Source: an uncultured Bacilli bacterium (GTDB lineage Bacteria; Bacillota_I; Bacilli_A; RF39; UBA660). From it: 64,000 nucleotides of DNA. Position numbers and translations under genes: made by a program. Shown here piece after piece: positions 11,986-63,772 of this stretch; position 1 is the stretch's first letter; each line of letters opens with the position of its first letter. Location of the stretch: NCBI GenBank assembly GCA_934100165.1, contig CAKOPN010000005.1:33804-97803 (forward strand), given 5' to 3'. Below the pieces are notes generated by a model. It was not told the DNA's origin. It did no database searches and saw nothing but the letters and a program-made list of their open reading frames with translations.

Positions 11986-12873
11986 GTGAGTATGAATGGA
12001 AATTTAAATGTTTCAAAAGTGAAAAGATTCTTAAAAAATAAAAATACGGTAACAGCTTTATGTGCAATTTTAATAGTAGTAGTTTTAATCGTTGGTTACA
12101 CAATACGTGTTAATAATGCTACAAAACCAGTTAAAATACCAGTAGCAAAGGTTACAATCCAACCAAGAACAGAAATAACTGCGGATATGATAACTGAAAT
12201 AAATGTACCACAAGAAGCTTTAAAGGGTAATTATTATAGAAATGTAAGCTCTCTAGTAGGAAAATATTCAAATGTAAATACTGTAATTCCGGCTGGTAGT
12301 ATATTCTACAGTGAGGCAGTAATTAGTAAAAATGACCTACCAGATTCATCTTTATATGATGTTGCAGAAGGTGAGACTTTATATTATTTAACAGTTAATA
12401 TGCTAACAAGTTACACAAATTCAATTTTACCAGGAAATTATATTGATATATATCTTTCTACAAAAGAAAATAATAAAGCATTAGTTGGTAAAATATTAGA
12501 AAATGTTAAAATTTTAGCAGTAAAAACTTCTGATGGTAAAAATGTTTTTGAGAACTCTGATGAATCAAGAACACCATATGTAATAATTTTTGCTCTTCCA
12601 GAAGAACAACATTTATTACTTAGAAAAATAAATGCAATTAACAGCTATTCTGTATATGCAACTAATCCAGGATATTCAAAGATTGATATAATTCCAGTTC
12701 CTACCGCTGCAAGTTTTGACGGTTCGGAAAAAGATATTAAACCAAATGTAACTAGCCAATATTTAAAGGACTATATTTTAAATATGGCTGCTACAGTTCC
12801 AGAAGATGTAATTACTGAGAATAATAATAATCAAAATATAAATGAAAATGAAAACACTAACAAAACAGAATAA
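11986..12873 (+). CDS. CpaB/RcpC-like Flp-pilus assembly protein (N-terminal TM plus SAF-like domain)
   Basis: 295 aa. An N-terminal TM (VTALCAILIVVVLIVGY) is followed by a beta-rich region with LPGNYIDIY and VKILAVKT...YVIIFALPEEQHLLLRKINA motifs resembling CpaB. It ends in an Asn-rich tail. Confidence 0.6.
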   Translation: MSMNGNLNVSKVKRFLKNKNTVTALCAILIVVVLIVGYTIRVNNATKPVKIPVAKVTIQPRTEITADMITEINVPQEALKGNYYRNVSSLVGKYSNVNTVIPAGSIFYSEAVISKNDLPDSSLYDVAEGETLYYLTVNMLTSYTNSILPGNYIDIYLSTKENNKALVGKILENVKILAVKTSDGKNVFENSDESRTPYVIIFALPEEQHLLLRKINAINSYSVYATNPGYSKIDIIPVPTAASFDGSEKDIKPNVTSQYLKDYILNMAATVPEDVITENNNNQNINENENTNKTE

Positions 12874-12885
12874 TGAGGTGATTCT

Positions 12886-14373
12886 ATGAATGAGTCAATG
12901 AATTTTGGCAACATTGGTTTTAATAGTGTGGCTTCTAACAATACAGAAAATAATTTTGAAGTTAAGGCGCCAACTACTACAACAGGACAAAATATAACGG
13001 AAGAAAATAGTGGTATAGATTTTCCTAAAAGTAGTGTAGCTAAAATAGATGAGTCAAAAGAAGATAATTTTTCTAGTATTGAATTTGGACCACTACAAAA
13101 GTATCTAGATGATGATGATATCACAGATATTTCTTATAGTAATGGCGGACAACTATGGTTAAAGTCATTACAAAGAGGTGTATATAGAGCAGATCAACAA
13201 GATGTAGACAATGCTTTGGTAGAAAAAATAGCTTTCCAGTGTTCGAACGTAATGGGGAAAACATTTAACATGGCCCATCCATTCTTGGACTCTGAGAGTG
13301 CAGAGTTACGTATGAACTTTGTACACGATTCAATAGCACGTAACGGTATTGCTGCTGTTTTTCGTAAGACACCTGCTAAAATAAGACTTGAAAAAAGTAA
13401 ATTATTAAATGAAAAGTACGTTACTTTAAGTATTCATGATTTTCTAATAAACTGTGTAAAAGGGCACTGTAACATGATTGTCTGCGGTGAAACTGGTTCA
13501 GGTAAAACAGAACTTGTAAAATACTTAGCAAGTCATACAGCAGAAAATGAAAAGATAATAACTATTGAAGATACACTAGAACTTCACCTTGATAGAATAT
13601 ATCCAACTCGTGATATTGTAGCTATGAAAACAAATAACATTGCATCATATTCTGATGTTCTAGTTACATGTATGAGGCAAAACCCAAAATGGATACTACT
13701 ATCAGAAGTACGTAGTGCAGAAGCAGTTACAGCAGTTCGTAACTCTATATCATCAGGACACAACATCTTATCTACCATCCATGCTGATAAGGCAGAGAGT
13801 ATTCCACTTCGTATGTATAGCTTACTAGAGTCAAATATTGATGTAGAGCAGTTCTTAAAAACTATTTATCGTTATGTACAAGTAGGTATATTTGTAAGAG
13901 GTAGATATAGTCCAAAAGAAAAAAGATTTGTACGTGAAATTGCTGGAGTAACAGAGTTTTACGTAACGGATGATACTAATGAACCAAAAAGCAATAATAT
14001 ATATTTAAAAAATGTTGCAGGTGAAGAAACTTATAATGAGCCAACAGAATATTTAATAAATTACCTTGAAGGTCAAGGAATAGATATAAATAATTTATTT
14101 GGAGAAAATAAGTCATCACTTATTGCAACACTAAATGAAAAAGTAAATGAACCACAACCGGTAAATAATACTATACAAGCTCCTAATCAAAATATGCAGC
14201 AAAATATAAATTTAGCAGCACAAATAAATAATCAAAGTGCATTTCAAACAATACCAAATCAAAATAATGTAAACATGCAAGGCTATAATGCACCTGTTCA
14301 AGGTATGCAAAATCAAATGCCTTATCAAAGTCAAAATTTTAATCAACAAATAAATAGAATAGACACATTATAA
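12886..14373 (+). CDS. TadA/CpaF/VirB11-family secretion ATPase with N- and C-terminal low-complexity extensions
   Basis: 495 aa. Walker A CGETGSGKTE, the ITIEDTLEL aspartate box, ILLSEVRSAEA and a His box STIHA are diagnostic of the GspE/CpaF/VirB11 superfamily. An N-terminal ~100-aa N/T-rich region and a C-terminal ~90-aa Q/N-rich tail are atypical. Confidence 0.85.
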   Translation: MNESMNFGNIGFNSVASNNTENNFEVKAPTTTTGQNITEENSGIDFPKSSVAKIDESKEDNFSSIEFGPLQKYLDDDDITDISYSNGGQLWLKSLQRGVYRADQQDVDNALVEKIAFQCSNVMGKTFNMAHPFLDSESAELRMNFVHDSIARNGIAAVFRKTPAKIRLEKSKLLNEKYVTLSIHDFLINCVKGHCNMIVCGETGSGKTELVKYLASHTAENEKIITIEDTLELHLDRIYPTRDIVAMKTNNIASYSDVLVTCMRQNPKWILLSEVRSAEAVTAVRNSISSGHNILSTIHADKAESIPLRMYSLLESNIDVEQFLKTIYRYVQVGIFVRGRYSPKEKRFVREIAGVTEFYVTDDTNEPKSNNIYLKNVAGEETYNEPTEYLINYLEGQGIDINNLFGENKSSLIATLNEKVNEPQPVNNTIQAPNQNMQQNINLAAQINNQSAFQTIPNQNNVNMQGYNAPVQGMQNQMPYQSQNFNQQINRIDTL

Positions 14374-17788: not shown

Positions 17789-17816
17789 TTAGTTATGAAA
17801 TTTGGAGGAGTTTTGT

Positions 17817-18146
17817 ATGGAAATATTTCAAACTTTAGCTGATGCTTGCGGAGGATTACGTCCGATCGTTGCAGTATTAAAAGGTGTATTTGATATTATT
17901 AAAATAGGTGTTCCAATTTTACTTATAATAATGGGAGCAATAGACTTAGGAAAAGCTGTTATGGCTAGTGATGATAAAGAAATCAAAGCAGCAACTAGTA
18001 AGTTAATTAAACGTGCTATTGCAGCAGCTGCAGTGTTCTTTGCTGTTACTATTGTAGATGTAGTAATGGGACTAGTAGCAAGAGGAGAAGAAACTGATGG
18101 TGAAACAAACTCATCAAGTTGGTCTGCTTGCTGGAAGAGTATGTAA
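17817..18146 (+). CDS. Small two-TM protein, VirB2/TrbC-like pilin candidate
   Basis: 109 aa from the ATG at 17817. The track start at 17802 is a TTG inside the RBS. There are two hydrophobic helices (IGVPILLIIMGAIDLG and AIAAAAVFFAVTIVDVVMGLV) separated by a charged loop, the topology of VirB2/TrbC-family conjugative pilins. Confidence 0.4.
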   Translation: MEIFQTLADACGGLRPIVAVLKGVFDIIKIGVPILLIIMGAIDLGKAVMASDDKEIKAATSKLIKRAIAAAAVFFAVTIVDVVMGLVARGEETDGETNSSSWSACWKSM

Positions 18147-19500: not shown

Positions 19501-21381
19501 ATGGGATTACAAGCAGAAAGTTGGATCAATAATATACTAAGGACAATTTTAGCTGGCCTTGATTATGTTATTTATGGACTAATTAAAAACGTACTTTTTC
19601 TAACTTTTGACTTAGCTAATTTAACAACAAGCTCAAAGATATTAAATGGTATATATAGTCGTATATATGTACTTTTAGGAGTATTTATGGCTTTCAAACT
19701 TTCTTTTTCATTCTTTCAATACATTGTTGATCCAGAATCAATGACAGGAAAAAGTGAAAAAGGTGTTGGAAAACTTATTTCACGTACAATAGTTATGCTT
19801 GTAGCACTGGTTGGTCTTCCAACAATATTATTTGGTGGTGGTGATGGTGAAGGCTTAATTCAGAGAGCTCAAAATGCATTTTTACCAATGCTACCTAGAG
19901 TTATCTTTGGAATAAGCGAAGATAGCGGTGTATCTGCAAGTAATGGTAATAACACTGAAGACATTACTAATGCTGCAAATACGATGGCAGCTTATACGTT
20001 AGGTGCTTTTTTCGCACCGTCGCCGGATTTGGATAGTGTATGTGAAGGTCAATATGCCAATACACCATACATAACATCACTTGACCAATTTATTTCAAAT
20101 GTTAATGTGAGTTGTAGAAACACTACTGGTAAGGGTGATAGTGCTAAATACTACAAATATAGTTATATATGCTTAATATCTACGGTAGTAGGACTATTGT
20201 TAGTAATTATTTTGTTAGGAATTGCCTTAGACGTTGGAAAGAGAGTTTTCAAAATGATAATTTTACAAGCAATAGCACCAATTCCAATAATGTCGTTAAT
20301 AGATCCAAAGTCAAGCAAAGATGGTGCTTTTTCACACTGGTTAAAGTCTTTAATTTCAACTTTCTTAGAAATATTTATTAAACTGGGTTTGGTATACCTT
20401 GTGCTTATGTTTATACAGTACATTATAAGTGGAGGATTGTTTAGTAATTTTCCAAGTTTTAGTGGACCAAACGGAGTAATTAGAAGTTCATTCTTATTTG
20501 TAACCTTGATAATAGCATTGCTCTTATTTGCCAAAGAAGCTCCAAAATTTATCAAGGATGCTATGGGAATTAAAGATTCAGGTGCTGGCTTTGGACAAGG
20601 AATGAGCGCTGCTATGGGAGCCATCGGTGGATTTATTGGTGGACGTGGTCTTGCTGGTATGGCAACAGGAGCAGTCGCAGGAGCTACAGCAGATCCTAAA
20701 GTTGGTGGTTACGCAGCAGGTCGTGACATAGCAGGTCAAATGAGAACAGGTGATAAAAACTGGAAAGGTGGTCTTACTAATGGCTTCATGAGAGGTGCAA
20801 GAAATCACCAAGGTACAAGAGAAGCAAGAAAACTTGGTGTAACTTCAGCAAGTTTGAGTGCTGCTAAAGATGCAATGAAGAAGGATGAAGAACGTGTTGA
20901 ATCACTACAACAAGCATATGGTGAAGCAGTACAAAGCGGAGATGCAACTGCTATTGCCGAAGCAAGAACAAATTTAAATGCTGCTATCAAACAGTCAAAA
21001 GCCTCAAAGAAAAGATACGAAGGTATGGACAAAATTGCCGATACATTTGGTATAAAAACACCAAAACATGTTGAAATGAAACAAAATGGAAACCCAGTGT
21101 ACAGAGGAAGAAGATCAGCAGCTAACCTTGCTGGCAAAGCTGGTAGTTGGATAGAGAATAGCAAAGTTGGTGCACCTATTAGAACAATTGATTCAGCAGT
21201 ACAACAGCATAGAATTAATCAAGTAACAAGAGGTGCAGCATTTGGAGATGATTCAGCACTTGCAGAAAGAAGAGATGAACTAGATAGTAGAGGTACATTA
21301 CAATCAAAAACTGGTCGTCACTTTGCACCAAGAGGCTCAAATAACAATAATTCTGGCGGTTCTAGTGGAAGTAGTTCATAA
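19501..21381 (+). CDS. VirB6/TrbL-like polytopic membrane protein with a long Gly-rich hydrophilic C-terminal tail
   Basis: 626 aa. About 6 TM helices in the first ~360 aa, then a Gly/Ala-rich segment (GAGFGQGMSAAMGAIGGFIGGRGLAGMATGAVAGA) and a ~250-aa charged tail ending in SGGSSGSSS. This architecture and the synteny (before VirB3-like and VirB4) are typical of VirB6-like proteins of Gram-positive T4SS. Confidence 0.5.
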   Translation: MGLQAESWINNILRTILAGLDYVIYGLIKNVLFLTFDLANLTTSSKILNGIYSRIYVLLGVFMAFKLSFSFFQYIVDPESMTGKSEKGVGKLISRTIVMLVALVGLPTILFGGGDGEGLIQRAQNAFLPMLPRVIFGISEDSGVSASNGNNTEDITNAANTMAAYTLGAFFAPSPDLDSVCEGQYANTPYITSLDQFISNVNVSCRNTTGKGDSAKYYKYSYICLISTVVGLLLVIILLGIALDVGKRVFKMIILQAIAPIPIMSLIDPKSSKDGAFSHWLKSLISTFLEIFIKLGLVYLVLMFIQYIISGGLFSNFPSFSGPNGVIRSSFLFVTLIIALLLFAKEAPKFIKDAMGIKDSGAGFGQGMSAAMGAIGGFIGGRGLAGMATGAVAGATADPKVGGYAAGRDIAGQMRTGDKNWKGGLTNGFMRGARNHQGTREARKLGVTSASLSAAKDAMKKDEERVESLQQAYGEAVQSGDATAIAEARTNLNAAIKQSKASKKRYEGMDKIADTFGIKTPKHVEMKQNGNPVYRGRRSAANLAGKAGSWIENSKVGAPIRTIDSAVQQHRINQVTRGAAFGDDSALAERRDELDSRGTLQSKTGRHFAPRGSNNNNSGGSSGSSS

Positions 21382-31985: not shown

Positions 31986-32429
31986 ATGGAGAAAAAGGAT
32001 TATAAAAAAATAGTAGATAAAAATAAAGCAAAAGAGAAAAGATTACAAAATGCCGTAATTGCATTCATAACAGGAGGAATAACTGGTGCAATAGCAGAAC
32101 TTTTAGTAAATCTTTATTCATATTATTTAAATATTTCAACTCAGGATGCATCAGTATTTATGATAGTAACACTAATATTTTTAGCAGCATTATTTACTTC
32201 TCTTGGTTTCTTTGATAAATGGGTCAACTTTGCAAGATGTGGTTTAATCATTCCCATAACAGGGTTTGCTCATTCAATGATGAGTGCTGGATTAGAATAT
32301 AAAAAAGAAGGACCAATATATGGAATTGGTAGCAATGTTTTTAAACTAGCTGGATCGGTAATATTCTATGGTGTAGTTAGTGCATGGTTGTTTGGAATGA
32401 TTAGATATTTCTTGTTTGGAGGTGCGTAA
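31986..32429 (+). CDS. spoVAC: Stage V sporulation protein AC
   Basis: About 147 aa from the ATG at 31986 (GGTGA RBS). Four TM helices and high similarity to SpoVAC (ITGGITGAIAELL..., GLIIPITGFAHSMMSAGLEYKKEG). Confidence 0.9.
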   Translation: MEKKDYKKIVDKNKAKEKRLQNAVIAFITGGITGAIAELLVNLYSYYLNISTQDASVFMIVTLIFLAALFTSLGFFDKWVNFARCGLIIPITGFAHSMMSAGLEYKKEGPIYGIGSNVFKLAGSVIFYGVVSAWLFGMIRYFLFGGA

Positions 32430-32430
32430 G

Positions 32431-33426: not shown

Positions 33427-33773
33427 CATATATATATTCGTTTTTATTTGTAGGGTTTGTAAGTATGATAGGCCAAATAATATTAGATAATACTCGTCTT
33501 ACAGCAGGTCACATAACAAGTTTGTTTGTCTGTATTGGTGCGATGCTTGATACATTCAGCATATATGATAAGATAATTAAATGTGTAGGATCAGGTGCTT
33601 TAGTACCGATAACTTCCTTCGGTCATTCTTTAATTCATGGAGCACTTGCAAAAGCTGCAGATTTTGGTGTAATAGGGTTAGTAATGGGAATGTTTGATTT
33701 AACGGCCTCAGGTATAACATCGGCAATAATATTTACTTTTGTCTTCTCTTTAATATTTAATCCAAAAGACTAA
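33423..33773 (+). CDS. spoVAE: Stage V sporulation protein AE
   Basis: 116 aa. Membrane protein paralogous to SpoVAC (VPITSFGHSLIHGALAKAADFGVIGLVMG). ATGA overlap with spoVAD. Confidence 0.85.
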   Translation: MTYIYSFLFVGFVSMIGQIILDNTRLTAGHITSLFVCIGAMLDTFSIYDKIIKCVGSGALVPITSFGHSLIHGALAKAADFGVIGLVMGMFDLTASGITSAIIFTFVFSLIFNPKD

Positions 33774-43854: not shown

Positions 43855-44547
43855 ATGTTTTTTAAATTGTTAGAAAAACTCAAGAAATTGTTCGTATTCA
43901 CTGCAAGTTATTCTAATAATGTTTTTCTAGATCCATTAACTAAAGAAGAAGAGGAAGAGTGCATAAAAAAAGCTAATATGGGTGATAAGAATGCTAGAAA
44001 TAAACTTATAGAACATAACTTAAGGCTTGTCGCTCACATAGTTAAAAAGTTTGATTATAAAAATGTTGATCAAGATGACCTGATAAGTATAGGCACGATT
44101 GGTCTTATAAAAGGTGTTGATTCCTTTTCTAAAAGTCATGGGACAAAAATTACAACTTACTGTGCAAGATGTATAGAAAATGAAATACTAATGTACTTTA
44201 GGAGTAACAATAAAACGAGTAAAGATATATCTATAAATGAATCAATTGGTTATGATAAAGAAGGAAATGAAATAACAATTCTTGATATTTTAAAAATGCC
44301 AAGTCCTGATTTTGTGGAAACAATAAATGAAAAAGATAATGTAAAACTACTCAAAGAATATGTAAAAGTATTAACGCCAAGAGAAAAAAATATACTTTTT
44401 AAACGTTATGGAATTGGGGACAATGATGAAATGACCCAGAAAGAAATAGCAAAGGATTTAAAAATATCAAGAAGTTATGTATCAAGAATTGAGAAGAGAG
44501 CTCTTATGAAAATATTAAGGGAATTTATGAAGAACAATAAGACGTAA
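43855..44547 (+). CDS. sigK: Pro-sigma-K (sporulation mother-cell sigma factor), uninterrupted
   Basis: 230 aa. Near-identity to B. subtilis SigK over HNLRLVAHIVKKF, DLISIGTIGLIKG, TYCARCIENEILM and ISRSYVSRIEKRALMK. There is an N-terminal ~25-aa pro-sequence. The gene is intact, with no intervening element. Confidence 0.8.
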   Translation: MFFKLLEKLKKLFVFTASYSNNVFLDPLTKEEEEECIKKANMGDKNARNKLIEHNLRLVAHIVKKFDYKNVDQDDLISIGTIGLIKGVDSFSKSHGTKITTYCARCIENEILMYFRSNNKTSKDISINESIGYDKEGNEITILDILKMPSPDFVETINEKDNVKLLKEYVKVLTPREKNILFKRYGIGDNDEMTQKEIAKDLKISRSYVSRIEKRALMKILREFMKNNKT

Positions 44548-44623: not shown

Positions 44624-46108
44624 GTGTTTAAATTGGAAACAGAATTTGTTGAAAAAAAAGAATCTGAGGAAAAGAAAAAAATAAAACATACAAGAAAAAT
44701 AATCCCTAAGAAAATAGTATTCATTTCCATAATTGCTTTAGTTTTACTTTTTATAATTATATATTTATTACTAGTACCAAAAATTTCATTAAATGGAAGT
44801 AAAAAGATGACCATAGAATATGGAGAGTCTTTTGAAGAACCAGGTTTTAAAGCAACGTATCTTGGAAAAAACATTACTGATAAGGCTTGGATAGAAGGAA
44901 CTGTCGATGATAAAGTACTTGGAGAATATAAATTAAAATACAAAGTAAGAAAAAATAAAATAACTATAACAAAGGAAAGAACAGTGAAAATAGTAGATAC
45001 AGTTAAACCTGTTATTACCCTAAATGGTGAGCAAGATACAAAAATTTGTCCAAATACTATATACAAAGAAGAAGGATATACAGCAGTAGATAATTATGAT
45101 GGTGATATAACTAAGAACGTTAAAGTTACGAGAAAAGAAGACCAAATGATTTACACTGTATCAGATAGTAGTAATAATAAGGAAACTGTTATAAGAACAA
45201 TAGAAAAGAAAGATGTTAATGCCCCTGTAATTACTCTTAAAGGCGGAGAAAACTATTACGTTACACAAAATGGCAAATATAAAGATCCAGGATACACTGC
45301 AGAAGATGAATGTGAAGGTGATTTAACTTCTAGAGTAACTGTAAAAGGAACTGTTAACACTAAAGAAGTTGGAACATATGAACTTGAATATTCTGTAGAA
45401 GATTCTATGAAGAATAAAGCAGTTGTTAAAAGAACCGTTTATGTGACAAAAGAAATTGCTACAGCAGATCCAATAAAAGGCACAATATATTTAACTTTTG
45501 ATGATGGACCTAGCGCAACAATAACACCAAAGGTGCTAAAAATATTAAAAGAAAAAAATGTAAAAGCAACTTTCTTTGTAATAAATCATTCAGACAACTT
45601 AAATTATTTAATAAAACAAGAATATGACGAAGGACATACAGTAGCACTTCACAGTATGACTCACAATTACAGCAAGGTTTACTCATCTGTTGATGCCTAC
45701 TTCAAAGATTTAGAGGCAATAAGAGATAAAGTGCAAAGTATAACTGGAGAAAGCCCAACAATAATAAGATTCCCAGGAGGAAGCAGCAATACTGTAAGCA
45801 GACATTATTCTAAAGGAATCATGAAAACTTTGACAAGAGAAGTAATCAATAAAGGATATCATTACTTTGATTGGAATGTATCAAGTGGAGATGCAGGGGA
45901 AGCTAAAACAAGCAGTGATGTTTATAGAAATGTAACGAAAGGTTTGAGTAAATCAAGAGCAAATGTCATTTTAATGCATGATTTTGAAAGTAATTATAAA
46001 ACTTTGAATGCTTTAAGTGATATAATAGATTATGGAAAAGCAAATGGTTATGAATTTTTAGCTATAGATATGTCTACGGCAATGGTTAGACATTCAGTTA
46101 ATAATTAG
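44624..46108 (+). CDS. Membrane-anchored polysaccharide deacetylase (NodB homology domain) with Ig-like repeats
   Basis: About 490 aa. An N-terminal TM is followed by two Ig-like repeats (GYTAVDNYDGDITKNV and GYTAEDECEGDLTSRV), then the NodB catalytic domain (TFDDGP, HSMTHNY, FPGGSSN motifs). The start could be GTG at 44624 or TTG at 44633. Confidence 0.8.
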   Translation: MFKLETEFVEKKESEEKKKIKHTRKIIPKKIVFISIIALVLLFIIIYLLLVPKISLNGSKKMTIEYGESFEEPGFKATYLGKNITDKAWIEGTVDDKVLGEYKLKYKVRKNKITITKERTVKIVDTVKPVITLNGEQDTKICPNTIYKEEGYTAVDNYDGDITKNVKVTRKEDQMIYTVSDSSNNKETVIRTIEKKDVNAPVITLKGGENYYVTQNGKYKDPGYTAEDECEGDLTSRVTVKGTVNTKEVGTYELEYSVEDSMKNKAVVKRTVYVTKEIATADPIKGTIYLTFDDGPSATITPKVLKILKEKNVKATFFVINHSDNLNYLIKQEYDEGHTVALHSMTHNYSKVYSSVDAYFKDLEAIRDKVQSITGESPTIIRFPGGSSNTVSRHYSKGIMKTLTREVINKGYHYFDWNVSSGDAGEAKTSSDVYRNVTKGLSKSRANVILMHDFESNYKTLNALSDIIDYGKANGYEFLAIDMSTAMVRHSVNN

Positions 46109-46120
46109 GAAGGAGTATTT

Positions 46121-47587
46121 ATGAAAAAAGTAAAATTATATTTATCTTTATTTATATTTGCCGTGCTGTTATCACCGTATATAGTACTAGCAGAAGACAC
46201 AACCAATTCCTTAGATGGACCAGAGTTAACTAGTCAGTCTGAGACAATATCATACGATATTAAGATAAATGCTCAAACAGCAATAGATGGTTATGAAGCA
46301 GCTTTAACGTATGAAACATCAAGCTTTGAACTAATAGGTATCGAATCAAAAAATGAATGGAAGGGAAATAACAAATTAACAACAGATAGTCCAATTAAAT
46401 TAGTGTTTAACCGTGAAAATGAATATACTGGAGAAATAGTGGTAGCAACTCTTAGATTTAAAGTAAAAGAAGATGCAAGCAAAACAGATACAATTTTCAC
46501 ACTAGAAGGACTAGTAAAATCAGGTAATGTTGCTACAAATTTAGCAAAAGTAACAAAAAATGTTGCTATCAAATCAAATGATAACTATTTGAAAGACTTA
46601 AAACTAAACGGAAAGAGTGTAACTAACTTTTCTAAAGATACTTACACATATTCTGTACAAATGCCATCAATTACTGCAACTGTCGCAATTGATGCAGTGT
46701 TAAATGATCAAACAGCAAGTTTTACCGATAAATATGGTTCTAGAAGTGAATCTTTAGCGTATGGGGAAAATATTTTTGAAATCAAAGTTTTATCAGCATC
46801 AGGTAGAGAAAGAAAGTATGTTATAAATATCACAAGGGAAGATAATAGAGGAACCAATAACGACTTAAAAAATATTATAATTAACTCAAACAAAGTAAAA
46901 ATAAATTTTGACAGTGCTACAACATTGTACACAATTAAAACATATAAATTAGATAAAATAGATGTAGCAGCAGAAGCAACTGACCCAAAAGCAACTGTAA
47001 AAATAGATAAACCAGAAAAGTTTGAAATAGGAGAAAACAAAGTAACCATAACAGTTACAAGTGAAGATGGAAAAGACAAAGTATATACCTTAATATTTAA
47101 CAACGTAGATTATGACATAGACACCTCACTAAAAAACATAGAAATATTTGGCCTTGATGAAGATTTTAACTTTGATCCAAAAGTTTTTGATTATGAAATA
47201 AGATATAAAGCAAAATATAAAGATACATTAGTAATAAAAGCAGAAAAAAATACTACTGATGAAGAAGTACAAATTGATGAACCACTACTTGAAGCAACAT
47301 CTAAAGATATAAAAAGTGGATCAGTTGTAAAAATAAGAGTGTATTCATTAGATGGTACAGAAAGCATGTACACTGTAACATTTGTAAAAGATAATAGAAT
47401 AAATTTCTTCCTATTACTAGGACTTGCAATTTTTCTAGTTTTGCTTATAATATTCATTAGACTTTTTATAAACAAAAACAAGGAAAAAAAGCAAAAAGAA
47501 ACTAAAAAGCCTACAACATCTAAAAATGAAAAGAACCAAGAAGATTTAGAGAAAACAAAAAGACTAGAAAAAGTTGTAAAACAATAA
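46121..47587 (+). CDS. Cell-surface protein with cohesin-like and cadherin-like beta-sandwich repeats and a C-terminal TM anchor
   Basis: 488 aa. Signal peptide MKKVKLYLSLFIFAVLLSPYIVLA, repeated ~90-aa beta-rich modules, a C-terminal TM (FFLLLGLAIFLVLLIIFI) and a Lys-rich cytoplasmic tail. Confidence 0.55.
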   Translation: MKKVKLYLSLFIFAVLLSPYIVLAEDTTNSLDGPELTSQSETISYDIKINAQTAIDGYEAALTYETSSFELIGIESKNEWKGNNKLTTDSPIKLVFNRENEYTGEIVVATLRFKVKEDASKTDTIFTLEGLVKSGNVATNLAKVTKNVAIKSNDNYLKDLKLNGKSVTNFSKDTYTYSVQMPSITATVAIDAVLNDQTASFTDKYGSRSESLAYGENIFEIKVLSASGRERKYVINITREDNRGTNNDLKNIIINSNKVKINFDSATTLYTIKTYKLDKIDVAAEATDPKATVKIDKPEKFEIGENKVTITVTSEDGKDKVYTLIFNNVDYDIDTSLKNIEIFGLDEDFNFDPKVFDYEIRYKAKYKDTLVIKAEKNTTDEEVQIDEPLLEATSKDIKSGSVVKIRVYSLDGTESMYTVTFVKDNRINFFLLLGLAIFLVLLIIFIRLFINKNKEKKQKETKKPTTSKNEKNQEDLEKTKRLEKVVKQ

Positions 47588-56267: not shown

Positions 56268-57212
56268 ATGAATGTAGAACTTGAGAAGAGTATGGAAAGT
56301 GCAAGAGAAAGTATCGAAAGAAGAACAGGGACATATTTTACTAGTCATAAAGCATTTGATAGTGCCATGGATTTTGCTTATAGATTTCTATACGATACAT
56401 TCGGTGATATTGATTTTACACCAATATTTTCATCTCAAGAAAAAGTTATAGTATTTCATAAAAATGGTAAAAAGCGTTTCAAAAGCCATGAAAAAACAAA
56501 CAACAGTGCAAGTGTTAGAATAAGCATAGAAATAATAAATGATACAGCATTAAATGTAGATGTTGAATCAGGAGCTGTCTATGATGTAGATAGTTTGGCA
56601 GAACAATTTACAAATGAAGAAGATAAAGAGAACTTCTTAAAAAATGCAAATGGTACCAAAAGTATTCTATGTACTTATTACAATCATAAAGTATATGACA
56701 ACTTTGGAATAGAAATGCATGACAGTTTTTACGATGACATGTTTTTCTTAAGAGAACCAATGTCAAGAGTTTTAATAAGTGGACAAGTAGTAACACCACT
56801 TAGAAACCCATCACTTTCTGAAAAAGGATACAGATTGCCCGAGAAACACAACAGTCCAGAATACAAAAGTGTAAGTAGAAATTATGATAATTTATCTCTT
56901 GCATACGTAACTTTTGTAGATTCAAATAGTAAAAAAAGTAGTAAAGAAATCTTTTTAGTAGATAGTACTAAACATCCAGAGAGACTAAGATTAACTGAGA
57001 CCCCTGTGGCACGTTGGAATGATAAAAAAATGGAATATGAAATAACTAATGAGGCATCTGGGAAATATAAAGATCTAGCTGAGCTAAATGCTAAAAGCAA
57101 AGAAGTTTTAGGTGCAAACTTAGAAGAATGCAAAACACGTGAAGAAAGCCCTGAAATATACAAACTATTAAAAAGTATAAACGGAATAGAGTATCCAAAA
57201 TACTCAAAATAA
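56268..57212 (+). CDS. Hypothetical cytoplasmic protein (immediately upstream of the VirB1-like hydrolase)
   Basis: 314 aa, no TM, no recognisable domain. Confidence 0.5.
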   Translation: MNVELEKSMESARESIERRTGTYFTSHKAFDSAMDFAYRFLYDTFGDIDFTPIFSSQEKVIVFHKNGKKRFKSHEKTNNSASVRISIEIINDTALNVDVESGAVYDVDSLAEQFTNEEDKENFLKNANGTKSILCTYYNHKVYDNFGIEMHDSFYDDMFFLREPMSRVLISGQVVTPLRNPSLSEKGYRLPEKHNSPEYKSVSRNYDNLSLAYVTFVDSNSKKSSKEIFLVDSTKHPERLRLTETPVARWNDKKMEYEITNEASGKYKDLAELNAKSKEVLGANLEECKTREESPEIYKLLKSINGIEYPKYSK

Positions 57213-57233: not shown

Positions 57234-60200
57234 ATGAATAACTCTACAAACAACACAAACCCAAATACAAACAATAGTGCACAAAACAACAATACAACCA
57301 AAAGACAAAAGATTAACTTAAATATGAACGACTATCTAAAAAAGCAAGCAATGCGAAAATTAGATGATAATAGATTCTCATCAAAATTAAGAGAAGCAGT
57401 GGAAAAAAATAAAAATAAAAATGCCAAAAAAGCCCTAAAAAACAATATTGGTAATTTTGCTTCTCCATTAGAAAGTGCTGTTGTTAAATCAAAATTAGCA
57501 GCAGGCGGTGGAGAAGAATATATAGATACTGTAAAGAATGCAAGCAATGAAATGGAAGGCGTTGCTAAAGTTGCAGCAAAGATCAAACTCAAAGGTAAAC
57601 TAATTAAAGTTGGTTTAATAATTGGTGGAATTGCTCTTGCAGTACTTTTTGTAATCGCTTTAATTACATCAATTTTCAAAAATGCTGATTCACAAATATA
57701 TAGTAATGTTAATGATGGAAAAATAGATCCTGAACAGTACCCAGACAATGACTTAATAAATCCAAATGTCTTTGTAAAATACCCAGGAATATACGAAAAA
57801 GTAGAAGCGGCAGCTAGAAAAGTTGGAAGCCAGTATAAAGTAGACATAGATAGATATTTAATTTTAGCTACTTTAATCGCTCCACTTGAAAATGAAAATA
57901 TAGTACCTGTTTCTGATGAAAGCTGCGGAGAAACGGACTGTTACTATCTTAAAGGGGAAAGCTACACATGGACTGAATTTTTGGAAAGATGGGGAGATCA
58001 AGCTGAATATTTAGCAAAAGCTCAGATACTAACTTATGTAAATAAAAGTTCAGATATAAAAGTAACTTGTGGAAAAGATCAGACAATGGAACAATATGCC
58101 CAAAATGACTTAGAAGTAAATGATTTTAATTTTTGGAAACTTTTCAACCCAGCTAACTGGTTTAAAGGTTTTAGAGATGCGACAGGAGCAGAACTTAATG
58201 CTAAATGCATATATGATGTTGAAGCAGGTGAGTCAAGAATCCCTACAATATATGTTCTGTCAAAAGATCAAGGAATATACTATAACGATATAAATGCCGA
58301 TGGAGAACGTACTTTTGTAAAAGATCCAAACAGTGGGGGAGTATACTTCTGGAATCTTGTTAATAATGGCGGATTTATTCATGTATATTTTGGAGACTAT
58401 CTGAACATTAATGAGAATGCTACAGATGATCAAAATTATGAACAAAACCTTTCTACTATCCTTGACATAGCAAACTATATTTATTCTTATTATGAATCAA
58501 TTAGAAAAGATTGTGAAGGATATTTGCTTATTGAGAGTACAATTGAAACAATAAATATGAGTCAACCAGGTGGTGGGGTATATACTCTTCCTCTTGACCA
58601 ATATATTGGTGGTGTAGTATTAGCAGAAATAGGATACAATGACAATATAGAAACAATTAAAGCATTTGCAACTCTTGCAAGAAGTTATGCTATAAGTGTT
58701 GTAGGATTAGATGGAAGTGGTACTATTGAAAATAGTAGTAATAACCAAAATTATAGCTGGAATTACACACCAGAAAAATATCCAAGAATAGCCCAGGCTG
58801 TTGAAGAAACGAAAGGTTTCGTATTAACACACTATGGGCAAGCTTCAGTAATTAGAAGTAGTTATGATGCATTTTGTCCTACGACTAGTGAGCCTATAAA
58901 TGACTTTTATTATTTACCAGATGGACAAAATAATATTCCAATTAGTCTTGAAAGTTATAGAAAAAAAACAGGACATGAATTCACTGTAAAAGAAAAATAC
59001 TTAAAATGCCCATGTTTCCAAAACGAAAGTAGTAGACCTAATAATGTAAGTTTTGGTGGTAAAAAAGTAAGATTTGCAACGTCTCCAAATAATCCACCAA
59101 CGGAAGCAGCTGGATCACCTAGACAAACAACGGATGCAGAATGCTGGACATACACAGGAAGTTCAAGAATAAATTCTTTAACACAAGCAACTGAATATGC
59201 TTGGACTTATAAAGCAACAGGTGGACATGGTAGAGGAGCAAGCCAAGTTGGACTTTCATATTATGGAATGTTTGGTTATGAATGGGAAGCTTTAATAAGA
59301 ATGTTCTATACTGATTCAACAATAAAGAGATTATCATCTTCTCTTGAAGAAGGAGAATGTCAAAATGCATCATACTATAAAGGAGAAACTGGTTCTACTG
59401 GTTCAACTACAATTGAAGCTTGTGGAGCAACATTTGAAAGCAATGGCGGAAATTATACAAAACGTATAAGTGGAAATCCTCTAAATTCTCCATTAACAGA
59501 TGCCCTTGATAGTAAAGGATATAGTATTGAATGTTTAAATAGTTGCATAGAGCAAAGAGTAAGCGCTGCTGGAATTGGTACTAGATATGGTACATCAGAA
59601 GCTGCTGTAGCACTTCTTGAGTGTACAATGGAAATGACAGGTGGCTTTACTTATCCTTATGACCATCGTGGCGGATACACTCCAAGAAACCCTGATATAG
59701 CTGGACAAACAGGTGTTAACTCAAGATGGGGAGAATATGAATCATGGGCTACTGGATGCGGTTCAAGTAAATGTCGTTTGGGCCTTAACTGTGCTAACTT
59801 TGTTAGATGGTCAATGTGTAATGGAGGAAGAAGTGATTTCTGTAATAGTAGAAGACAAGACACGTTTGCAACTGGAATAACAGGCGTAAACTCTGATACA
59901 GAATACTTCCCTGGAGCAGTTAGATTATATTTATCAGGTAGAAGTCACTTCTCAGTATCACCAAATGTTACTATTGGTGATTTAAGTAGTAGTTACCAGC
60001 AAAAATTTAGTAGCTTATATTCAACAAGTACTGCTCTTACTTCTGTAGATATAGACAAAGTATTATCACTAATTCAACCAGGAGACGTACTATATTCAGA
60101 CGTTAATGGTGGATCAAACCATGCTATGATGATAATTGGCGTTGAAGATTCTGCAATTTGGATAGCAGAAAATGGAAGAAAAACGCGTATGATTACTTAT

Positions 60201-60266
60201 GATGATTTAAAGTCAGGTAGTAAAAACTATGTCGTACTTTTACTAGATGGATATTACGAATCATAA
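57234..60266 (+). CDS. Membrane-anchored multi-domain cell-wall hydrolase: SpoIID/LytB-like domain plus C-terminal NlpC/P60- or CHAP-type papain-fold peptidase (VirB1 functional class)
   Basis: About 1010 aa from the ATG at 57234 (AGGTGGTGA RBS). Asn-rich N-terminus and a single TM (LIKVGLIIGGIALAVLFVIALITSIF). The SpoIID/LytB signature is LDQYIGGVVLAEIGYNDNIETIKAFATLARSYAI. The C-terminal Cys/His pair (GLNCANFVRWSMCNGG and GGSNHAMMIIG) is typical of NlpC/P60 or CHAP peptidases. Confidence 0.6.
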   Translation: MNNSTNNTNPNTNNSAQNNNTTKRQKINLNMNDYLKKQAMRKLDDNRFSSKLREAVEKNKNKNAKKALKNNIGNFASPLESAVVKSKLAAGGGEEYIDTVKNASNEMEGVAKVAAKIKLKGKLIKVGLIIGGIALAVLFVIALITSIFKNADSQIYSNVNDGKIDPEQYPDNDLINPNVFVKYPGIYEKVEAAARKVGSQYKVDIDRYLILATLIAPLENENIVPVSDESCGETDCYYLKGESYTWTEFLERWGDQAEYLAKAQILTYVNKSSDIKVTCGKDQTMEQYAQNDLEVNDFNFWKLFNPANWFKGFRDATGAELNAKCIYDVEAGESRIPTIYVLSKDQGIYYNDINADGERTFVKDPNSGGVYFWNLVNNGGFIHVYFGDYLNINENATDDQNYEQNLSTILDIANYIYSYYESIRKDCEGYLLIESTIETINMSQPGGGVYTLPLDQYIGGVVLAEIGYNDNIETIKAFATLARSYAISVVGLDGSGTIENSSNNQNYSWNYTPEKYPRIAQAVEETKGFVLTHYGQASVIRSSYDAFCPTTSEPINDFYYLPDGQNNIPISLESYRKKTGHEFTVKEKYLKCPCFQNESSRPNNVSFGGKKVRFATSPNNPPTEAAGSPRQTTDAECWTYTGSSRINSLTQATEYAWTYKATGGHGRGASQVGLSYYGMFGYEWEALIRMFYTDSTIKRLSSSLEEGECQNASYYKGETGSTGSTTIEACGATFESNGGNYTKRISGNPLNSPLTDALDSKGYSIECLNSCIEQRVSAAGIGTRYGTSEAAVALLECTMEMTGGFTYPYDHRGGYTPRNPDIAGQTGVNSRWGEYESWATGCGSSKCRLGLNCANFVRWSMCNGGRSDFCNSRRQDTFATGITGVNSDTEYFPGAVRLYLSGRSHFSVSPNVTIGDLSSSYQQKFSSLYSTSTALTSVDIDKVLSLIQPGDVLYSDVNGGSNHAMMIIGVEDSAIWIAENGRKTRMITYDDLKSGSKNYVVLLLDGYYES

Positions 60267-60359
60267 TCTCGAGAGAAATATAAAAAGGGTTGATATTATT
60301 GATTAGTAAAAAAATACAATTCTCTCTTGTATACTAAAAAATAGTATCATTTTGTGTCT

Positions 60360-61106
60360 ATGAGAAAAAAAGCATGTTTACTTCTTTTATTACTATTTCT
60401 GTTTACTGGCTGTACAGCAAATTATACTATCGAAGTTAAAGATGGCAAAATAACGGAAGAGTTTTATGTCGTTGAAACAGACAAAGAACTTGCCACAACC
60501 TACAAAGATGATATGGATAGTACATTCGATGATTATGCAAAAATGTATGGTATAGAAGACAATTATTATGCAAGTTACTATAACATGTATAACGATGAAG
60601 AGTCTATTTGCCATGAAACAGAAAAACACAGATGTGACTACTATAATAAAAAATATATAAATAATGATGATGGAATTGGTTTTAAACTAAGCTCAACCTT
60701 TACTTATGATGATTATGCAGATGCCACTATACCTAATGATTTGATGCCAGGCTTTACATCAAAGTTCGATGGTAAATATTTAGTAATAAATGGTGGAACA
60801 AACTGGGACTTTTTAAAAGGATATAAAAACCTTGAAAAAGTAAATATTAGAATAAAAAGTGACTATTATGTTACATCGACAAATATGAAATACAAAGGTA
60901 ATGGGTTGTACGAGGTTTCTGTCGACAAAAATAACAATAATGATTTCCCAGAAATTTATATAACATTTGACACAACTAAAACCAAAAGATTAGGTAATGA
61001 AAATGCTCAAATTGTAGGTATTATAATGGTTAGTGTAATTGGAGTAGTAATTTTATTTACAATAATAAGGTTATTCCAAAAAAATAAAAAGAACAATAAA
61101 GTTTAG
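60360..61106 (+). CDS. Lipoprotein with C-terminal TM anchor, unknown function
   Basis: About 248 aa from the ATG at 60360. Lipobox LLLLLLFLFTGC. A Tyr/Asp/Asn-rich ectodomain is followed by a C-terminal TM (IVGIIMVSVIGVVILFTII) and a KNKKNNKV tail. No obvious RBS. Confidence 0.55.
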   Translation: MRKKACLLLLLLFLFTGCTANYTIEVKDGKITEEFYVVETDKELATTYKDDMDSTFDDYAKMYGIEDNYYASYYNMYNDEESICHETEKHRCDYYNKKYINNDDGIGFKLSSTFTYDDYADATIPNDLMPGFTSKFDGKYLVINGGTNWDFLKGYKNLEKVNIRIKSDYYVTSTNMKYKGNGLYEVSVDKNNNNDFPEIYITFDTTKTKRLGNENAQIVGIIMVSVIGVVILFTIIRLFQKNKKNNKV

Positions 61107-61171
61107 TTTTATTGCAAAAAACTAGATTTTTATGTTATGATTTAATGTGTAAATAAGGAAGTGAATGTTTA

Positions 61172-63772
61172 ATGAAATTACGTATTGTAGCTAGTTCAAG
61201 AGATTTGATAATATTTGCTATATTTGCAGTATTTTTATTATATGTAGTGGCACTTGGAGTATTAAATTTGCCACAGTTAGCAGGGGAGGGAACTTTCTAT
61301 GGATTAAATCCAATAGAAGCGTTTTCAAGTGATTATATACTCTTTACAGTTGTATTTTATCTTTTAGCCTTAGGTGGTCTTATTATGAGTGTAAGCTCAT
61401 ATTTCTTTGAATGGGAATCTGGCTTTGGTTTTGGAGTTTCATCTGGTAGCAAAGGTGGATATTCAGACTGGGCAAAAGCAAAAGATATAAAAGAAGATAC
61501 AAACATTAAGAAAGTTAATGCAAGTGATCATACTTCTAAGTATGCAGGTGTTCCTCTTATTTGTAATGGTAAAGAGTTATGGGTAGATGATGGAGCATAT
61601 CATACACTTGTTATAGGTGCTACTGGTAGTGGTAAAACTCAGAGTACCATCTTACCTACAATGAAAATCCTTGCTAAAAAGGGTGAATCAATTATTTGTA
61701 CAGACCCAAAAGGTGAGTTATATGAAAAAACTGGTGGATTATTAAAAGAAAAAGGATATAACGTAATATTATTAAACTTCCGTAATCCTCAAAATGGTAA
61801 TGCTTGGAACCCACTTGCACTTCCATATAGACTTTATAAAAGCGGTAATCAAGATAAAGCTATTGAGTTACTAGATGACTTAGCTTTGAATATACTTTAT
61901 GATGAAAGTTCATCAAATGCCGACCCATTTTGGGAAAAAACAGCAGCAGATTATTTTGCAGGTATTGCTCTTGCTATGTTTGAAGATACTACTGAAGATA
62001 AAATCAATATAAATAGTATTAACATGACAGCAACTGTTGGTGAAGACAGGTTTGGTGGTTCAACTTATATTAAAGAGTATTTTAACTATAAAGATCCTAG
62101 CAGTGCAGCATATGTTAATGCAAGTGGTACTGTTATGGCACCAAGTGATACAAAGGGTGGTATAATTTCTGTATTTAAACAGAAAGTAAAACTTTTTGCA
62201 TCACGTGAAAACTTATCAGAAATGTTAAGTTATAGTGATTTTGATCTAGATTCAATTGGTAAAAGACCAACAGCAGTATTTATAATTATTCAAGATGAAA
62301 AGAAGACATACCATTCACTTGCTACAATCTTTATTAAACAAGCTTATGAAACTTTAATCGATGTAGCACAGTCAAATGGCGGAAAACTTCCATATAGAAC
62401 TAACTTCTTACTAGATGAGTTTGCTAACATGCCACCACTTAAAGACGTTACAACAATGATAACAGCAGCTCGTTCTAGACAAATAAGATTTACAATGATA
62501 ATCCAGAACTTTGCACAGTTAAACAAAATATATGGAAAAGATGATGCTGAAACAATAAAAGGTAACTGTGGTAACATAGTTTATTTGATTTCAACAGAAC
62601 TTGCTGCACTAGAAGAAATAAGCAAACTTTGTGGTGAGAAAAAATCAAAGAAAGATGATAAAACAGCATCAACACCTCTAGTTACTGTAAGCGACTTACA
62701 AAGAATGAAACAGTTCGACCAAATAATCTTACGTATGAGAAAAAATCCATTTAAAACATCATTTGTACCAGACTTTAAAATTGACTGGGGAAGCGAAACA
62801 TCTCCAAAAGTTGATTATCCACTAAGAGAGAAGAAAAAAGTAAATATATTCGATATTAGAGATTTTGTTAAAGAAAAGAAAAATCAAAAAATAAATGAAA
62901 TGATGGCAAGCATGTCTGATGGAGATAAAGGTGGATCTACAGCAAAGAAAGATCCATTCCAACAAATGCCTAGAGATCCTTTCCGAAGACCAATGTATAA
63001 TTCACCAGAAGGAAGAATGCCAAAAGAAAACAGTGATTTAGATACAAAACCGAAACCAAATATATCTGTTAGCGATCTAGTTAAGAAAATAGACCAAAAA
63101 TTAGCGGAAATTGAAAAAGAAGAATCAGAAAATAAAGCTAACAAGAAAGAACCAGTACCTGTAAAGAAGGAAGAAAAGAAATATTCTATTGATGACTTCT
63201 TAATGCAACAGGAAGAGAAAAAAGAAATCCAAAAAAATAAGAGTGTACAATATACTCCTTCAAAATCTTTTGATGAAAAGACAAAAGATAGTAAATCTTT
63301 TAATAAAGATATAGAACTTTTATCTGAATATGAAAAAGAAAAAAATGACAAAAAGGAACCTAAAAAAGAGAAGGAATATGTCTACATTGATAGTGATTCT
63401 GACTTATTTGCGCCAATTCTTGATAAAACAGATGAAGATAGAATAGAAAAAGAAATGAAAAAAGATGCTCCTTCAATAGATTTAACTGATGATATGATAA
63501 TGGATGTTGATAATCAGTTAAAAAATACTAAATTTGAAGAAGACAATATTGATATGGGTTTATTTGATTTAGATGATGATATAACTCCAAAAACTGAGGA
63601 TATTGTAATAGAAGAAAGAAAAGAACCTGAAGAAATCAAACAAGAGCAAGAGAAGAAAGAAGCTCCTGTTGAAAGAAAGGAACCAGAAGAAATCTTTAAG
63701 CCAACTCCAACAATTAAACTTGATGATGTTAAAGATGATGATAACTTCTTTGATGATTTCTTCGATGATTAA
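61172..63772 (+). CDS. VirD4/TraG-family type IV coupling protein ATPase with ~250-aa acidic C-terminal tail
   Basis: 866 aa. Two N-terminal TM helices, Walker A LVIGATGSGKTQS, the FLLDEFANMPPL motif, the RSRQIRFTMIIQNFAQL motif, and a highly acidic, Lys/Glu/Asp-rich tail ending DDDNFFDDFFDD. Confidence 0.8.
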   Translation: MKLRIVASSRDLIIFAIFAVFLLYVVALGVLNLPQLAGEGTFYGLNPIEAFSSDYILFTVVFYLLALGGLIMSVSSYFFEWESGFGFGVSSGSKGGYSDWAKAKDIKEDTNIKKVNASDHTSKYAGVPLICNGKELWVDDGAYHTLVIGATGSGKTQSTILPTMKILAKKGESIICTDPKGELYEKTGGLLKEKGYNVILLNFRNPQNGNAWNPLALPYRLYKSGNQDKAIELLDDLALNILYDESSSNADPFWEKTAADYFAGIALAMFEDTTEDKININSINMTATVGEDRFGGSTYIKEYFNYKDPSSAAYVNASGTVMAPSDTKGGIISVFKQKVKLFASRENLSEMLSYSDFDLDSIGKRPTAVFIIIQDEKKTYHSLATIFIKQAYETLIDVAQSNGGKLPYRTNFLLDEFANMPPLKDVTTMITAARSRQIRFTMIIQNFAQLNKIYGKDDAETIKGNCGNIVYLISTELAALEEISKLCGEKKSKKDDKTASTPLVTVSDLQRMKQFDQIILRMRKNPFKTSFVPDFKIDWGSETSPKVDYPLREKKKVNIFDIRDFVKEKKNQKINEMMASMSDGDKGGSTAKKDPFQQMPRDPFRRPMYNSPEGRMPKENSDLDTKPKPNISVSDLVKKIDQKLAEIEKEESENKANKKEPVPVKKEEKKYSIDDFLMQQEEKKEIQKNKSVQYTPSKSFDEKTKDSKSFNKDIELLSEYEKEKNDKKEPKKEKEYVYIDSDSDLFAPILDKTDEDRIEKEMKKDAPSIDLTDDMIMDVDNQLKNTKFEEDNIDMGLFDLDDDITPKTEDIVIEERKEPEEIKQEQEKKEAPVERKEPEEIFKPTPTIKLDDVKDDDNFFDDFFDD

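Follow-up and report, generated by a model that had tools for sequence, protein, structure and literature searches.

The DNA stretch analyzed here, called the window in the following, comprises 64,000 nucleotides of contig CAKOPN010000005.1 (assembly GCA_934100165.1) from an uncultured Bacilli bacterium. Towards its end it carries a gene for a large cell wall hydrolase in the order topA, a 314-aa open reading frame (ORF), hydrolase, a 248-aa lipoprotein and a coupling protein (T4CP) of a type IV secretion system (T4SS). The hydrolase ORF is uninterrupted and open from 57216 to its end at 60266 on the forward strand, and its ATG start codon at 57234 follows a Shine-Dalgarno-like sequence, AGGTGGTGA. 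The gene is real and intact, since gene calls on 11 independent metagenome contigs give an identical 1010-aa protein and the 99%-identical cluster around it contains 145 member sequences. A word-indexed search returned 82 homologs, none of them named, and a look-up of the cluster members likewise gave no source-given name for any member of the family. A scan for promoters and terminators stayed at background level and was uninformative.

The hydropathy profile of the hydrolase (Kyte-Doolittle, 19-residue window) peaks at 3.02 in a transmembrane (TM) helix at residues 124-146, approximately, and no other such segment is present in the protein. By the positive-inside rule the tail in front of this helix is predicted to be located inside the cell and the remaining approximately 860 residues outside. 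The extracytoplasmic part is divided into three domains, here referred to as the N-domain, the SpoIID/LytB domain and the C-module, which are listed in Table 1 together with the T4SS genes of the window.

Table 1 Features of the hydrolase gene and of the T4SS genes in the window (+, forward strand; aa, amino acids).
Feature	Position	Strand	Basis
Hydrolase gene, 1010 aa, stop codon included	57234..60266	+	ORF list
Cytoplasmic tail, residues 1-123, Asn-rich then Lys-rich, moderately conserved (predicted)	57234..57602	+	Sequence, hydropathy, consensus of the long-form alignment
TM helix, residues ~124-146	57603..57671	+	Kyte-Doolittle
N-domain, residues 165-445, ~280 aa, extracytoplasmic (predicted)	57726..58568	+	AlphaFold2 model and conservation
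SpoIID/LytB domain, residues 446-711	58569..59366	+	Pfam, NCBIfam, family profile, Foldseek
C-module, papain-fold peptidase/amidase (NlpC/P60-CHAP-Amidase_6 clan, predicted), residues 712-1010, ~290 aa	59367..60263	+	AlphaFold2, family Pfam matches, invariant residues
Cys853	59790-59792	+	Helix N-terminus in the AlphaFold2 model
His963	60120-60122	+	Beta-strand in the AlphaFold2 model
Glu979-Asn980	60168-60173	+	At the end of the strand after the His963 strand in the AlphaFold2 model
Partner lipoprotein, 248 aa, lipobox LFTGC and C-terminal TM helix	60360..61106	+	ORF list, co-occurrence
VirD4/TraG-type coupling protein (T4CP), CD1115 family	61172..63772	+	PF02534 E=6e-64; NF045973 302.6 vs cut-off 250
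VirB4-like ATPase, 597 aa	22252..24045	+	Pfam AAA_10, P-loop_TraG, CagE_TrbE_VirB; NF045975 354 bits
Separate VirB4 N-terminal domain ('TraC-like'), 183 aa	21704..22255	+	NF045975 positions 100-276; homologs carry PF26593
TrbL/VirB6-like polytopic protein	19501..21381	+	PF19597 TrbL_4 E=1.4e-6, 28.3 bits vs cut-off 27; weak NCBIfam pLS20_p028
VirB2-like T4SS pilin-like small protein	17802..18146	+	PF18895 E=1.1e-4, below cut-off
CpaB/RcpC-like protein and VirB11/TadA-type ATPase, head of the cluster	11986..14373	+	NCBIfam scores all below cut-offs

When the whole hydrolase was scanned against Pfam and NCBIfam, SpoIID was the only domain found, and there was no Pfam match to SLT or lysozyme families. 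The match to PF08486 (residues 449-533) has an E-value of 4.5e-12 and 46.9 bits against a cut-off of 23, and the SpoIID_LytB model TIGR02669 aligns over nearly its full length (positions 4-269 of 270) with residues 450-698 (E=3.6e-18), at a score of 66.4 that is below the NCBI cut-off of 83.3. The equivalog model for SpoIID itself, TIGR02870, is not reached, the hydrolase scoring 37.4 bits against a cut-off of 234.75. A profile of the 68-sequence hydrolase family finds the SpoIID structures 4rwr, 5i1t and 5txu in PDB at E-values around 4e-8, with an alignment in which the GGVxLAE segment is matched as well as the C-terminal GHGxGxSQxG motif. The same fold is recovered when the AlphaFold2 model of residues 160-715 (predicted local distance difference test, pLDDT, 91.9) is compared with PDB in Foldseek, where 5i1t (E=3.2e-9) and 4rwr (4.7e-7) are both found with probability 1.00 and the spore lytic transglycosylase SleC gives a weaker match; SpoIID and SleC were the only PDB matches to this model of N-domain and SpoIID domain, and BFVD gave nothing.

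The residues expected in a SpoIID active site can be pointed out in the alignment. Glu465 (58626-58628) is aligned with the catalytic Glu of the GVxAxEM motif, whose counterparts are E88 in B. subtilis SpoIID and E101 in C. difficile SpoIID. For the C. difficile enzyme, E101 is the catalytic residue (PMC6221140). Arg483 is kept and aligned in the SpoIID catalytic region, and GGHGRGASQ (59220-59246) is aligned with GHGVGMSQ. Four conserved Cys residues (548, 592, 594, and 637; present in 67 or 68 of the 68 members) are found within family-specific inserts of the domain. As judged from the alignment, the domain is of a type that retains the catalytic Glu ('E-type'), for which we predict lytic transglycosylase activity.

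The C-module is modeled as one single module with a helical N-subdomain first (pLDDT 88.3). In the model the placement of Cys853, His963, and Glu979-Asn980 is a papain-like arrangement, and all of these residues are invariant in the alignment of the 34 long forms of the family (the short form, approximately 740 aa, ends directly after SpoIID). Among 21 family members, 16 match NLPC_P60, 12 Amidase_6 and 10 CHAP, and several of these matches exceed the Pfam cut-offs: CHAP with 29.4 in P0045 and 28.1 in P0085 (cut-off 26), Amidase_6 with 27.3 in P0086 (cut-off 23.2), and CHAP and NLPC_P60 (cut-offs 26 and 23) with 28.9 and 28.5 in P0120 and with 27.9 and 27.4 in P0127. The members above cut-off are tied to the C-module of the query at E-values from 1e-20 to 1e-128, and the CHAP match in P0045 runs from the conserved Cys through the His to the Glu-Asn pair. 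When a full set of 1.84 billion representatives was scanned with the C-module profile in HMMER, 581 proteins were found at E<=1e-3. Among 145 distant representatives taken from these, 139 of 140 aligned sequences retain the Cys, which is embedded in D/N-C-S/A-x-x-V, the classical NlpC/P60 signature. The His is present in 85 of 85, and Glu is found as the third residue in 65 of 84. By way of the family members above the curated cut-offs the C-module qualifies, at the level of sequence, as a member of the papain-fold peptidase clan. Weak Foldseek matches of the C-module in PDB are all to papain-fold Cys peptidases, namely USP14, the C39 domain of PCAT1 (probability 0.93, 64 columns) and SpeB, while its profile gave just MagC at E=1.2 among the PDB sequences. 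With the C-module alone as query, the word-indexed search found nothing but split genes or fragments that belong to this hydrolase family.

A preliminary description of this gene, made from the DNA letters, had proposed a SpoIID domain and an NlpC/P60- or CHAP-type peptidase with a Cys/His pair on a membrane anchor. This architecture is borne out by PF08486, by the family-level CHAP, NLPC_P60 and Amidase_6 matches and by the single TM helix, and since both SpoIID and the papain-fold family are recovered and the Cys and His are conserved throughout the long forms and in almost all of the distant homologs, the proposal is upheld. The domain scan it had suggested recovers SpoIID in the query itself and the papain-fold peptidase only by way of family members (query E~0.1). 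The several hundred unassigned residues that were placed between SpoIID and the peptidase have to be moved: the distance from around residue 711 to Cys853 is only approximately 140 residues, which are part of the peptidase fold, and the domain lacking an assignment is found at residues 165-445, N-terminal to SpoIID.

This N-domain is modeled with confidence (pLDDT mostly above 90) and has no match in Pfam and no Foldseek match in PDB or BFVD; a word-indexed search with the N-domain alone led to no protein beyond the hydrolase family, of which it gave fragments or split genes. D206, D292, and E320 are invariant in the 68-sequence family, and five Cys residues (231, 236, 279, 325, and 427) are conserved, Cys231 in 67 of 68 members. 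When 167 sequences were classified with local hidden Markov models (HMMs), a set that includes the 145 representative clusters from the profile search, the N-domain was restricted to the closer clade of the hydrolase family. It may be a scaffold, or it may be an extra wall-binding or catalytic domain.

The genomic context of the hydrolase was analyzed in a locus scan with one genome per GTDB species. The 16 loci found are all in metagenome-assembled genomes of uncultured gut 'Bacilli' (some of them labeled Clostridium sp. or Erysipelotrichaceae), except for one closed chromosome of 1.31 Mb. In nearly all of them the hydrolase gene is located directly downstream of homologs of the window genes at 14394-24045, and the order in the relatives is fixed as pilin, VirB6, split VirB4, hydrolase, lipoprotein and T4CP. 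The hydrolase gene directly follows virB4 in the loci that reach that far, and in addition in L021, L023, L024, L026, L027, L028 and L030. Further downstream the order in most of the 16 loci is hydrolase, lipoprotein, T4CP, SNase, (PedC), holA and two genes named unk408 and unk551. It is not kept in L013 and L017, which have the short form, in L019, which is rearranged, or where a contig end truncates the locus. Since it is directly downstream of T4SS gene homologs in nearly all loci, the hydrolase gene is a bona fide member of the T4SS gene set. The family was seen solely in T4SS context among at least 17 loci inspected, and three of three distant loci inspected show the order VirB6, ~105-aa gene, TraC-like, VirB4, hydrolase, ~250-aa protein and T4CP with different flanks. 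The distant members P0120, P0127, P0147 and P0166 also pair SpoIID with CHAP or NLPC_P60. Across the lineage the identities are 85-93% for VirB4, 70-84% for T4CP and about 50% for holA, and the divergence of the hydrolase tracks that of VirB4 (Spearman rho 0.86), the lipoprotein (0.80) and T4CP (0.76), and also that of the flanking unk408 and unk551.

The association with a T4SS noticed in the preliminary description is thus confirmed, both by the VirD4-type coupling protein two genes downstream and by the position directly after virB4 in the relatives. The same description had called a SpoIID module in such a context unusual. We found no description of a SpoIID module in the hydrolase slot of a T4SS in the searchable literature, which agrees with this view; it is nevertheless not a one-off, as SpoIID and the C-module are combined in at least 46 of the 167 classified sequences.

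In the window VirB4 is encoded by two overlapping genes, with the 597-aa ATPase covering positions 294-891 of the NF045975 model, and this split is kept in all relatives seen. The weak PF18895 match of the pilin-like protein is found again in its counterparts in the relatives. The 248-aa lipoprotein has no relatives in Pfam, NCBIfam or PDB. On longer contigs with an identical hydrolase, T4CP is followed by an SNase-type nuclease, a thioredoxin-like PedC/BrcD-like protein, holA and two further genes; the nuclease and the PedC/BrcD-like protein (L001, 16556-17667) are just past the window end. The cluster is split in the window (11986-24045 and 57234-63772) by approximately 33 kb of housekeeping genes between virB4 and the hydrolase gene, among them tig, a phosphoglucosamine-mutase-like gene, yebC, gpsA, five tRNAs, sporulation genes, Mur ligases, ddl and topA. 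Locus L019 has its break elsewhere, after a short-form hydrolase that is followed by yebC-gpsA.

Several other genes of the window were looked at in passing. The 314-aa ORF (56268-57212), separated from the hydrolase gene by a gap of 21 nt, is confined to the window's own species, and it has no family or PDB match; the idea that it could be a remnant of a short paralog was rejected, as it does not resemble the hydrolase family. A 786-aa ORF (9487-11847), which lies shortly before the CpaB-like gene, has no match in Pfam or PDB. Two surface proteins are encoded at 44624-47587, one with Ig-like and polysaccharide deacetylase domains and one with cadherin-like domains, and in some relatives of the C-module of approximately 700 aa (P0098 and P0101) the position of SpoIID is taken by this same Bact_surface_Ig-like domain. 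A SigF/G-like sigma factor (31225-31917) and SpoVAD (32416-33426; 414.7 vs an NCBIfam cut-off of 402) are found within 30885-33773, and a SigK-like sigma factor at 43855-44547 (300.9 vs a subfamily cut-off of 252). The spore-forming host assumed in the preliminary description is plausible in view of these three genes, on which we also dropped our doubt, raised by the small genomes, that the host forms spores at all; 1.31 Mb, the size of the closed genome of the relative, would be very small for a spore-former.

The mobile, conjugative setting that had been suspected for these genes could not be maintained. The topoisomerase near the hydrolase gene is the housekeeping type IA topA (TIGR01051, 774 bits), and no relaxase or integrase was detected among the cluster genes scanned, where several ORFs have no assignment, so that a very divergent relaxase is possible. 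Homologs of the hydrolase were not found in PLSDB plasmids or INPHARED phages (tblastn), and no plasmid VirB4 shares more than 30% identity with the VirB4 of the cluster. The absence of a detected relaxase or integrase, of plasmid or phage homologs and of a close plasmid VirB4 speaks for a chromosomal T4SS that is inherited vertically and against an integrative and conjugative element (ICE), and the ICE or plasmid reading was rejected on topA, the conserved chromosomal flanks next to holA and the lack of a detected relaxase. In locus L023, comEA and comEC (14971-17707) come right after T4CP, and in B. subtilis the comE operon adjoins holA. Because of the comEA-comEC and holA neighbors, and the comE operon being by holA in B. 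subtilis, we place the T4SS cluster at or within the ancestral locus of competence.

Taken together, the domains and the synteny lead us to consider it probable that the hydrolase is the peptidoglycan-remodeling subunit, i.e. the functional equivalent of VirB1, PrgK or CwlT, of a monoderm MPF-FATA-like T4SS. For monoderm VirB1 proteins the pairing of a glycan-cleaving domain with a CHAP-type domain has been described (PMC12102498). The reading is also favored by the conjugative plasmid pBMB68, where the slot behind VirB4 is taken by an NlpC/P60 protein. In the mechanism that we propose the TM helix would anchor the hydrolase in the membrane of the producer, the conserved cytoplasmic tail would probably dock to the T4SS ATPases, and the three extracytoplasmic domains would act on the wall above the channel. 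The Cys-His-Glu C-module would begin by removing or cutting stem peptides, leaving denuded glycan strands, which would be the sole substrate of a SpoIID-type lytic transglycosylase. The E-type SpoIID domain would then use Glu465 to cut these strands to anhydro-muropeptides, creating a local hole for the pilus or channel. SpoIID is known to cleave only glycan that has been denuded of peptides by SpoIIP (PMC6221140), and the two-protein logic of engulfment by SpoIIP and SpoIID would in this way be fused in one polypeptide. Since the lipoprotein occurs only together with the peptidase module, being encoded after every long-form hydrolase and absent from the short-only loci L013, L017 and L027, it may regulate or position that module.

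A comparison with known systems shows where the hydrolase is ordinary and where it is not. Its combination of a glycan-cleaving domain with a papain-fold Cys peptidase at the C-terminus, its membrane anchoring, its position beside virB4 and its presumed role as wall opener for the channel are shared with the bifunctional T4SS hydrolases known from conjugation in Gram-positive bacteria, a group of membrane-anchored or secreted enzymes that are composed of SLT and CHAP (TraG of pIP501), LytM, SLT and CHAP (PrgK of pCF10) or muramidase and NlpC/P60 (CwlT of ICEBs1), and that includes TcpG of pCW3. It differs from them in that the glycan module is of the SpoIID/LytB type and not SLT, lysozyme or glucosaminidase, in the extra ~280-aa N-domain and the elaborated ~290-aa peptidase module with its helical subdomain, and in belonging to a chromosomal system with no relaxase detected. 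With the SpoIID-SpoIIP pair of Bacillus and Clostridioides it has the SpoIID fold, the catalytic Glu and the GHGxGxSQ motif in common, and by analogy it would follow the same order of an amidase or endopeptidase first and a lytic transglycosylase on denuded glycan second (PMC6221140). In contrast to that pair, a papain-fold Cys peptidase is fused in cis instead of the SpoIIP amidase, there is no SpoIIM, the hydrolase is not an ortholog of SpoIID, and the context is a T4SS and not a sporulation operon; the H134/C140/H145/C146 zinc motif of the C. difficile protein is missing at the equivalent place, and the hydrolase has four other conserved Cys (548, 592, 594, and 637) instead. The relaxase-less T4SS of Patescibacteria (e.g. 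Southlakia epibionticum) resembles the present one by its MPF-FATA-related VirB4, VirB2-like pilins, VirB6 and T4CP, by wall hydrolases (there peptidase and lysozyme homologs) immediately after virB4, and by being chromosomal and widespread in a reduced-genome lineage (PMC12102498), while the phylum (here uncultured gut Bacilli with sporulation genes) and the type of hydrolase are different.

Some of our observations weigh against the assignment as a wall-opening T4SS subunit. The query's own C-module is below every Pfam threshold (NLPC_P60 E=0.11 and Amidase_6 E=0.10), Foldseek finds nothing in PDB at E<=1e-3 for it (best E=0.02), and its comparison with the NlpC/P60 protein that occupies the slot after VirB4 in pBMB68, the nearest plasmid system, was not significant in hhalign or BLASTP, the resemblance being at the level of motifs only. 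The hydrolase gene is approximately 33 kb away from virB4 in the window, so it is not certain to be regulated together with the genes in the first half of the cluster, and as no relaxase was detected in the cluster the process served may not be conjugation. The peptidase module is absent in the short-only loci L013, L017 and L027, and in L018 it is a separate gene. The SpoIID catalytic Glu is replaced by Thr in 23 of the 68 members ('T-type'; examples are P0038, P0041, P0043, P0045, P0046, P0048, P0049, P0056 and many short forms), which also carry a nearby Trp-rich insert of 21 residues, GSAKMGCWWWKYNPTYDPSY. T-type short paralogs are found in tandem with E-type long forms, and in at least one genome (L030) a T-type long form is the only copy in the cluster; therefore lytic transglycosylase activity of the SpoIID domain is not universally required in the hydrolase slot. 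As the T-type and the peptidase-less forms demonstrate, each of the two activities can be dispensed with in some genomes. The T-type members may be pseudo-enzymes or may use a different mechanism. In B. subtilis the SpoIID/LytB-domain protein LytB works with the amidase LytC as its enhancer; by analogy LytB is a possible model for the T-type members, although it is unlike the hydrolase in being a separate secreted protein with wall-binding repeats and an Amidase_3 enzyme as partner.

The same findings can be read in other ways. The hydrolase could be directed outward, as a 'drill' of a relaxase-less T4SS that attacks the wall of a partner cell in a contact-dependent process (DNA uptake or export, killing, or an epibiotic life style), with the lipoprotein as its immunity protein or inhibitor. 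The lack of a detected relaxase or integrase, the conserved chromosomal position without plasmid homologs and the 1.31-Mb closed genome of the relative would suit such a system, and so would the nuclease after T4CP (comEA-comEC in L023), while the conservation of VirB4 and T4CP across a lineage where holA is only about 50% identical suggests strong selection on a core function. There is even a precedent in Patescibacteria, whose relaxase-less T4SS has hydrolases directly after virB4 and is essential for epibiotic growth (PMC12102498). However, a hydrolase whose TM anchor is uncleaved and which shows no evident signal for secretion or translocation should stay in the membrane of its producer, the position after virB4 is also the ordinary slot for self-wall hydrolases in conjugative plasmids such as pBMB68, and the strict co-occurrence of lipoprotein and peptidase module, which an immunity function would explain, fits equally well with a structural T4SS part. 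We find an outward-directed enzyme unlikely.

Much less credit can be given to explanations in which the T4SS genes play no part. That the hydrolase is a SpoIID-like hydrolase of engulfment or cortex remodeling, located near a T4SS by coincidence, could be argued from its fold, the structural match to SleC, the sigma factor and SpoVAD genes in the window and the detachment from virB4 in this genome, and the preliminary description had left room for it by stating that the protein could act in either process. With its weak score on the SpoIID equivalog (37 vs 235 bits), with 1010 aa and three ectodomains compared with approximately 340 aa for SpoIID, and with a position between virB4 and T4CP in every relative examined, where it co-diverges with both, this is very improbable. 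SpoIID/LytB domains are moreover found beyond sporulation; LytB of B. subtilis is a vegetative, amidase-associated protein, and the name of the NCBIfam model covers LytB. Proteins with NlpC/P60 and SpoIID/LytB domains often serve in growth and cell separation, and together with the split cluster in the window this could point to a general autolysin, or an enzyme of cell separation, that has no dedicated role in secretion and whose linkage to the T4SS genes is incidental. Such an enzyme would hardly be expected to keep its place in an order conserved across very divergent genomes with different flanking genes, or to belong to a family that in all loci inspected is found only in T4SS context, and we give this explanation almost no weight.

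The view of the hydrolase as the wall-remodeling subunit of the T4SS can be extended to a wider picture, which taken as a whole we regard as doubtful: the hydrolase would be the wall breacher of a domesticated, vertically inherited, relaxase-less and non-conjugative T4SS that is core to a lineage of small-genome, uncultured gut Bacilli, it would combine the 'strip then cut' action of SpoIIP and SpoIID in one polypeptide under control of the lipoprotein, and the N-domain would represent a new fold family of scaffold or wall-active proteins. If this were true, the non-conjugative function could be DNA uptake or export by a comE/holA locus, or a contact-dependent exploitation of neighbors.

To our knowledge, it is not yet well understood how the T4SS of Gram-positive bacteria pass the thick wall, and the few T4SS wall hydrolases that we know to be characterized all have SLT, lysozyme or glucosaminidase modules. 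What is new here is a bifunctional T4SS hydrolase with a SpoIID-type glycan module, an orphan N-domain and an unusual chromosomal host system. Recruitment of a SpoIID-type lytic transglycosylase, fused to the very peptide-removing enzyme that it would need, suggests a testable 'strip-then-cut' mechanism, and nature has provided the variants for its dissection, in that SpoIID domains occur as E- and T-type, the peptidase module can be present or absent along with the lipoprotein, and some paralogs are arranged in tandem. Finally, the analysis draws attention to a highly conserved but unannotated chromosomal T4SS in common gut bacteria of humans and animals.

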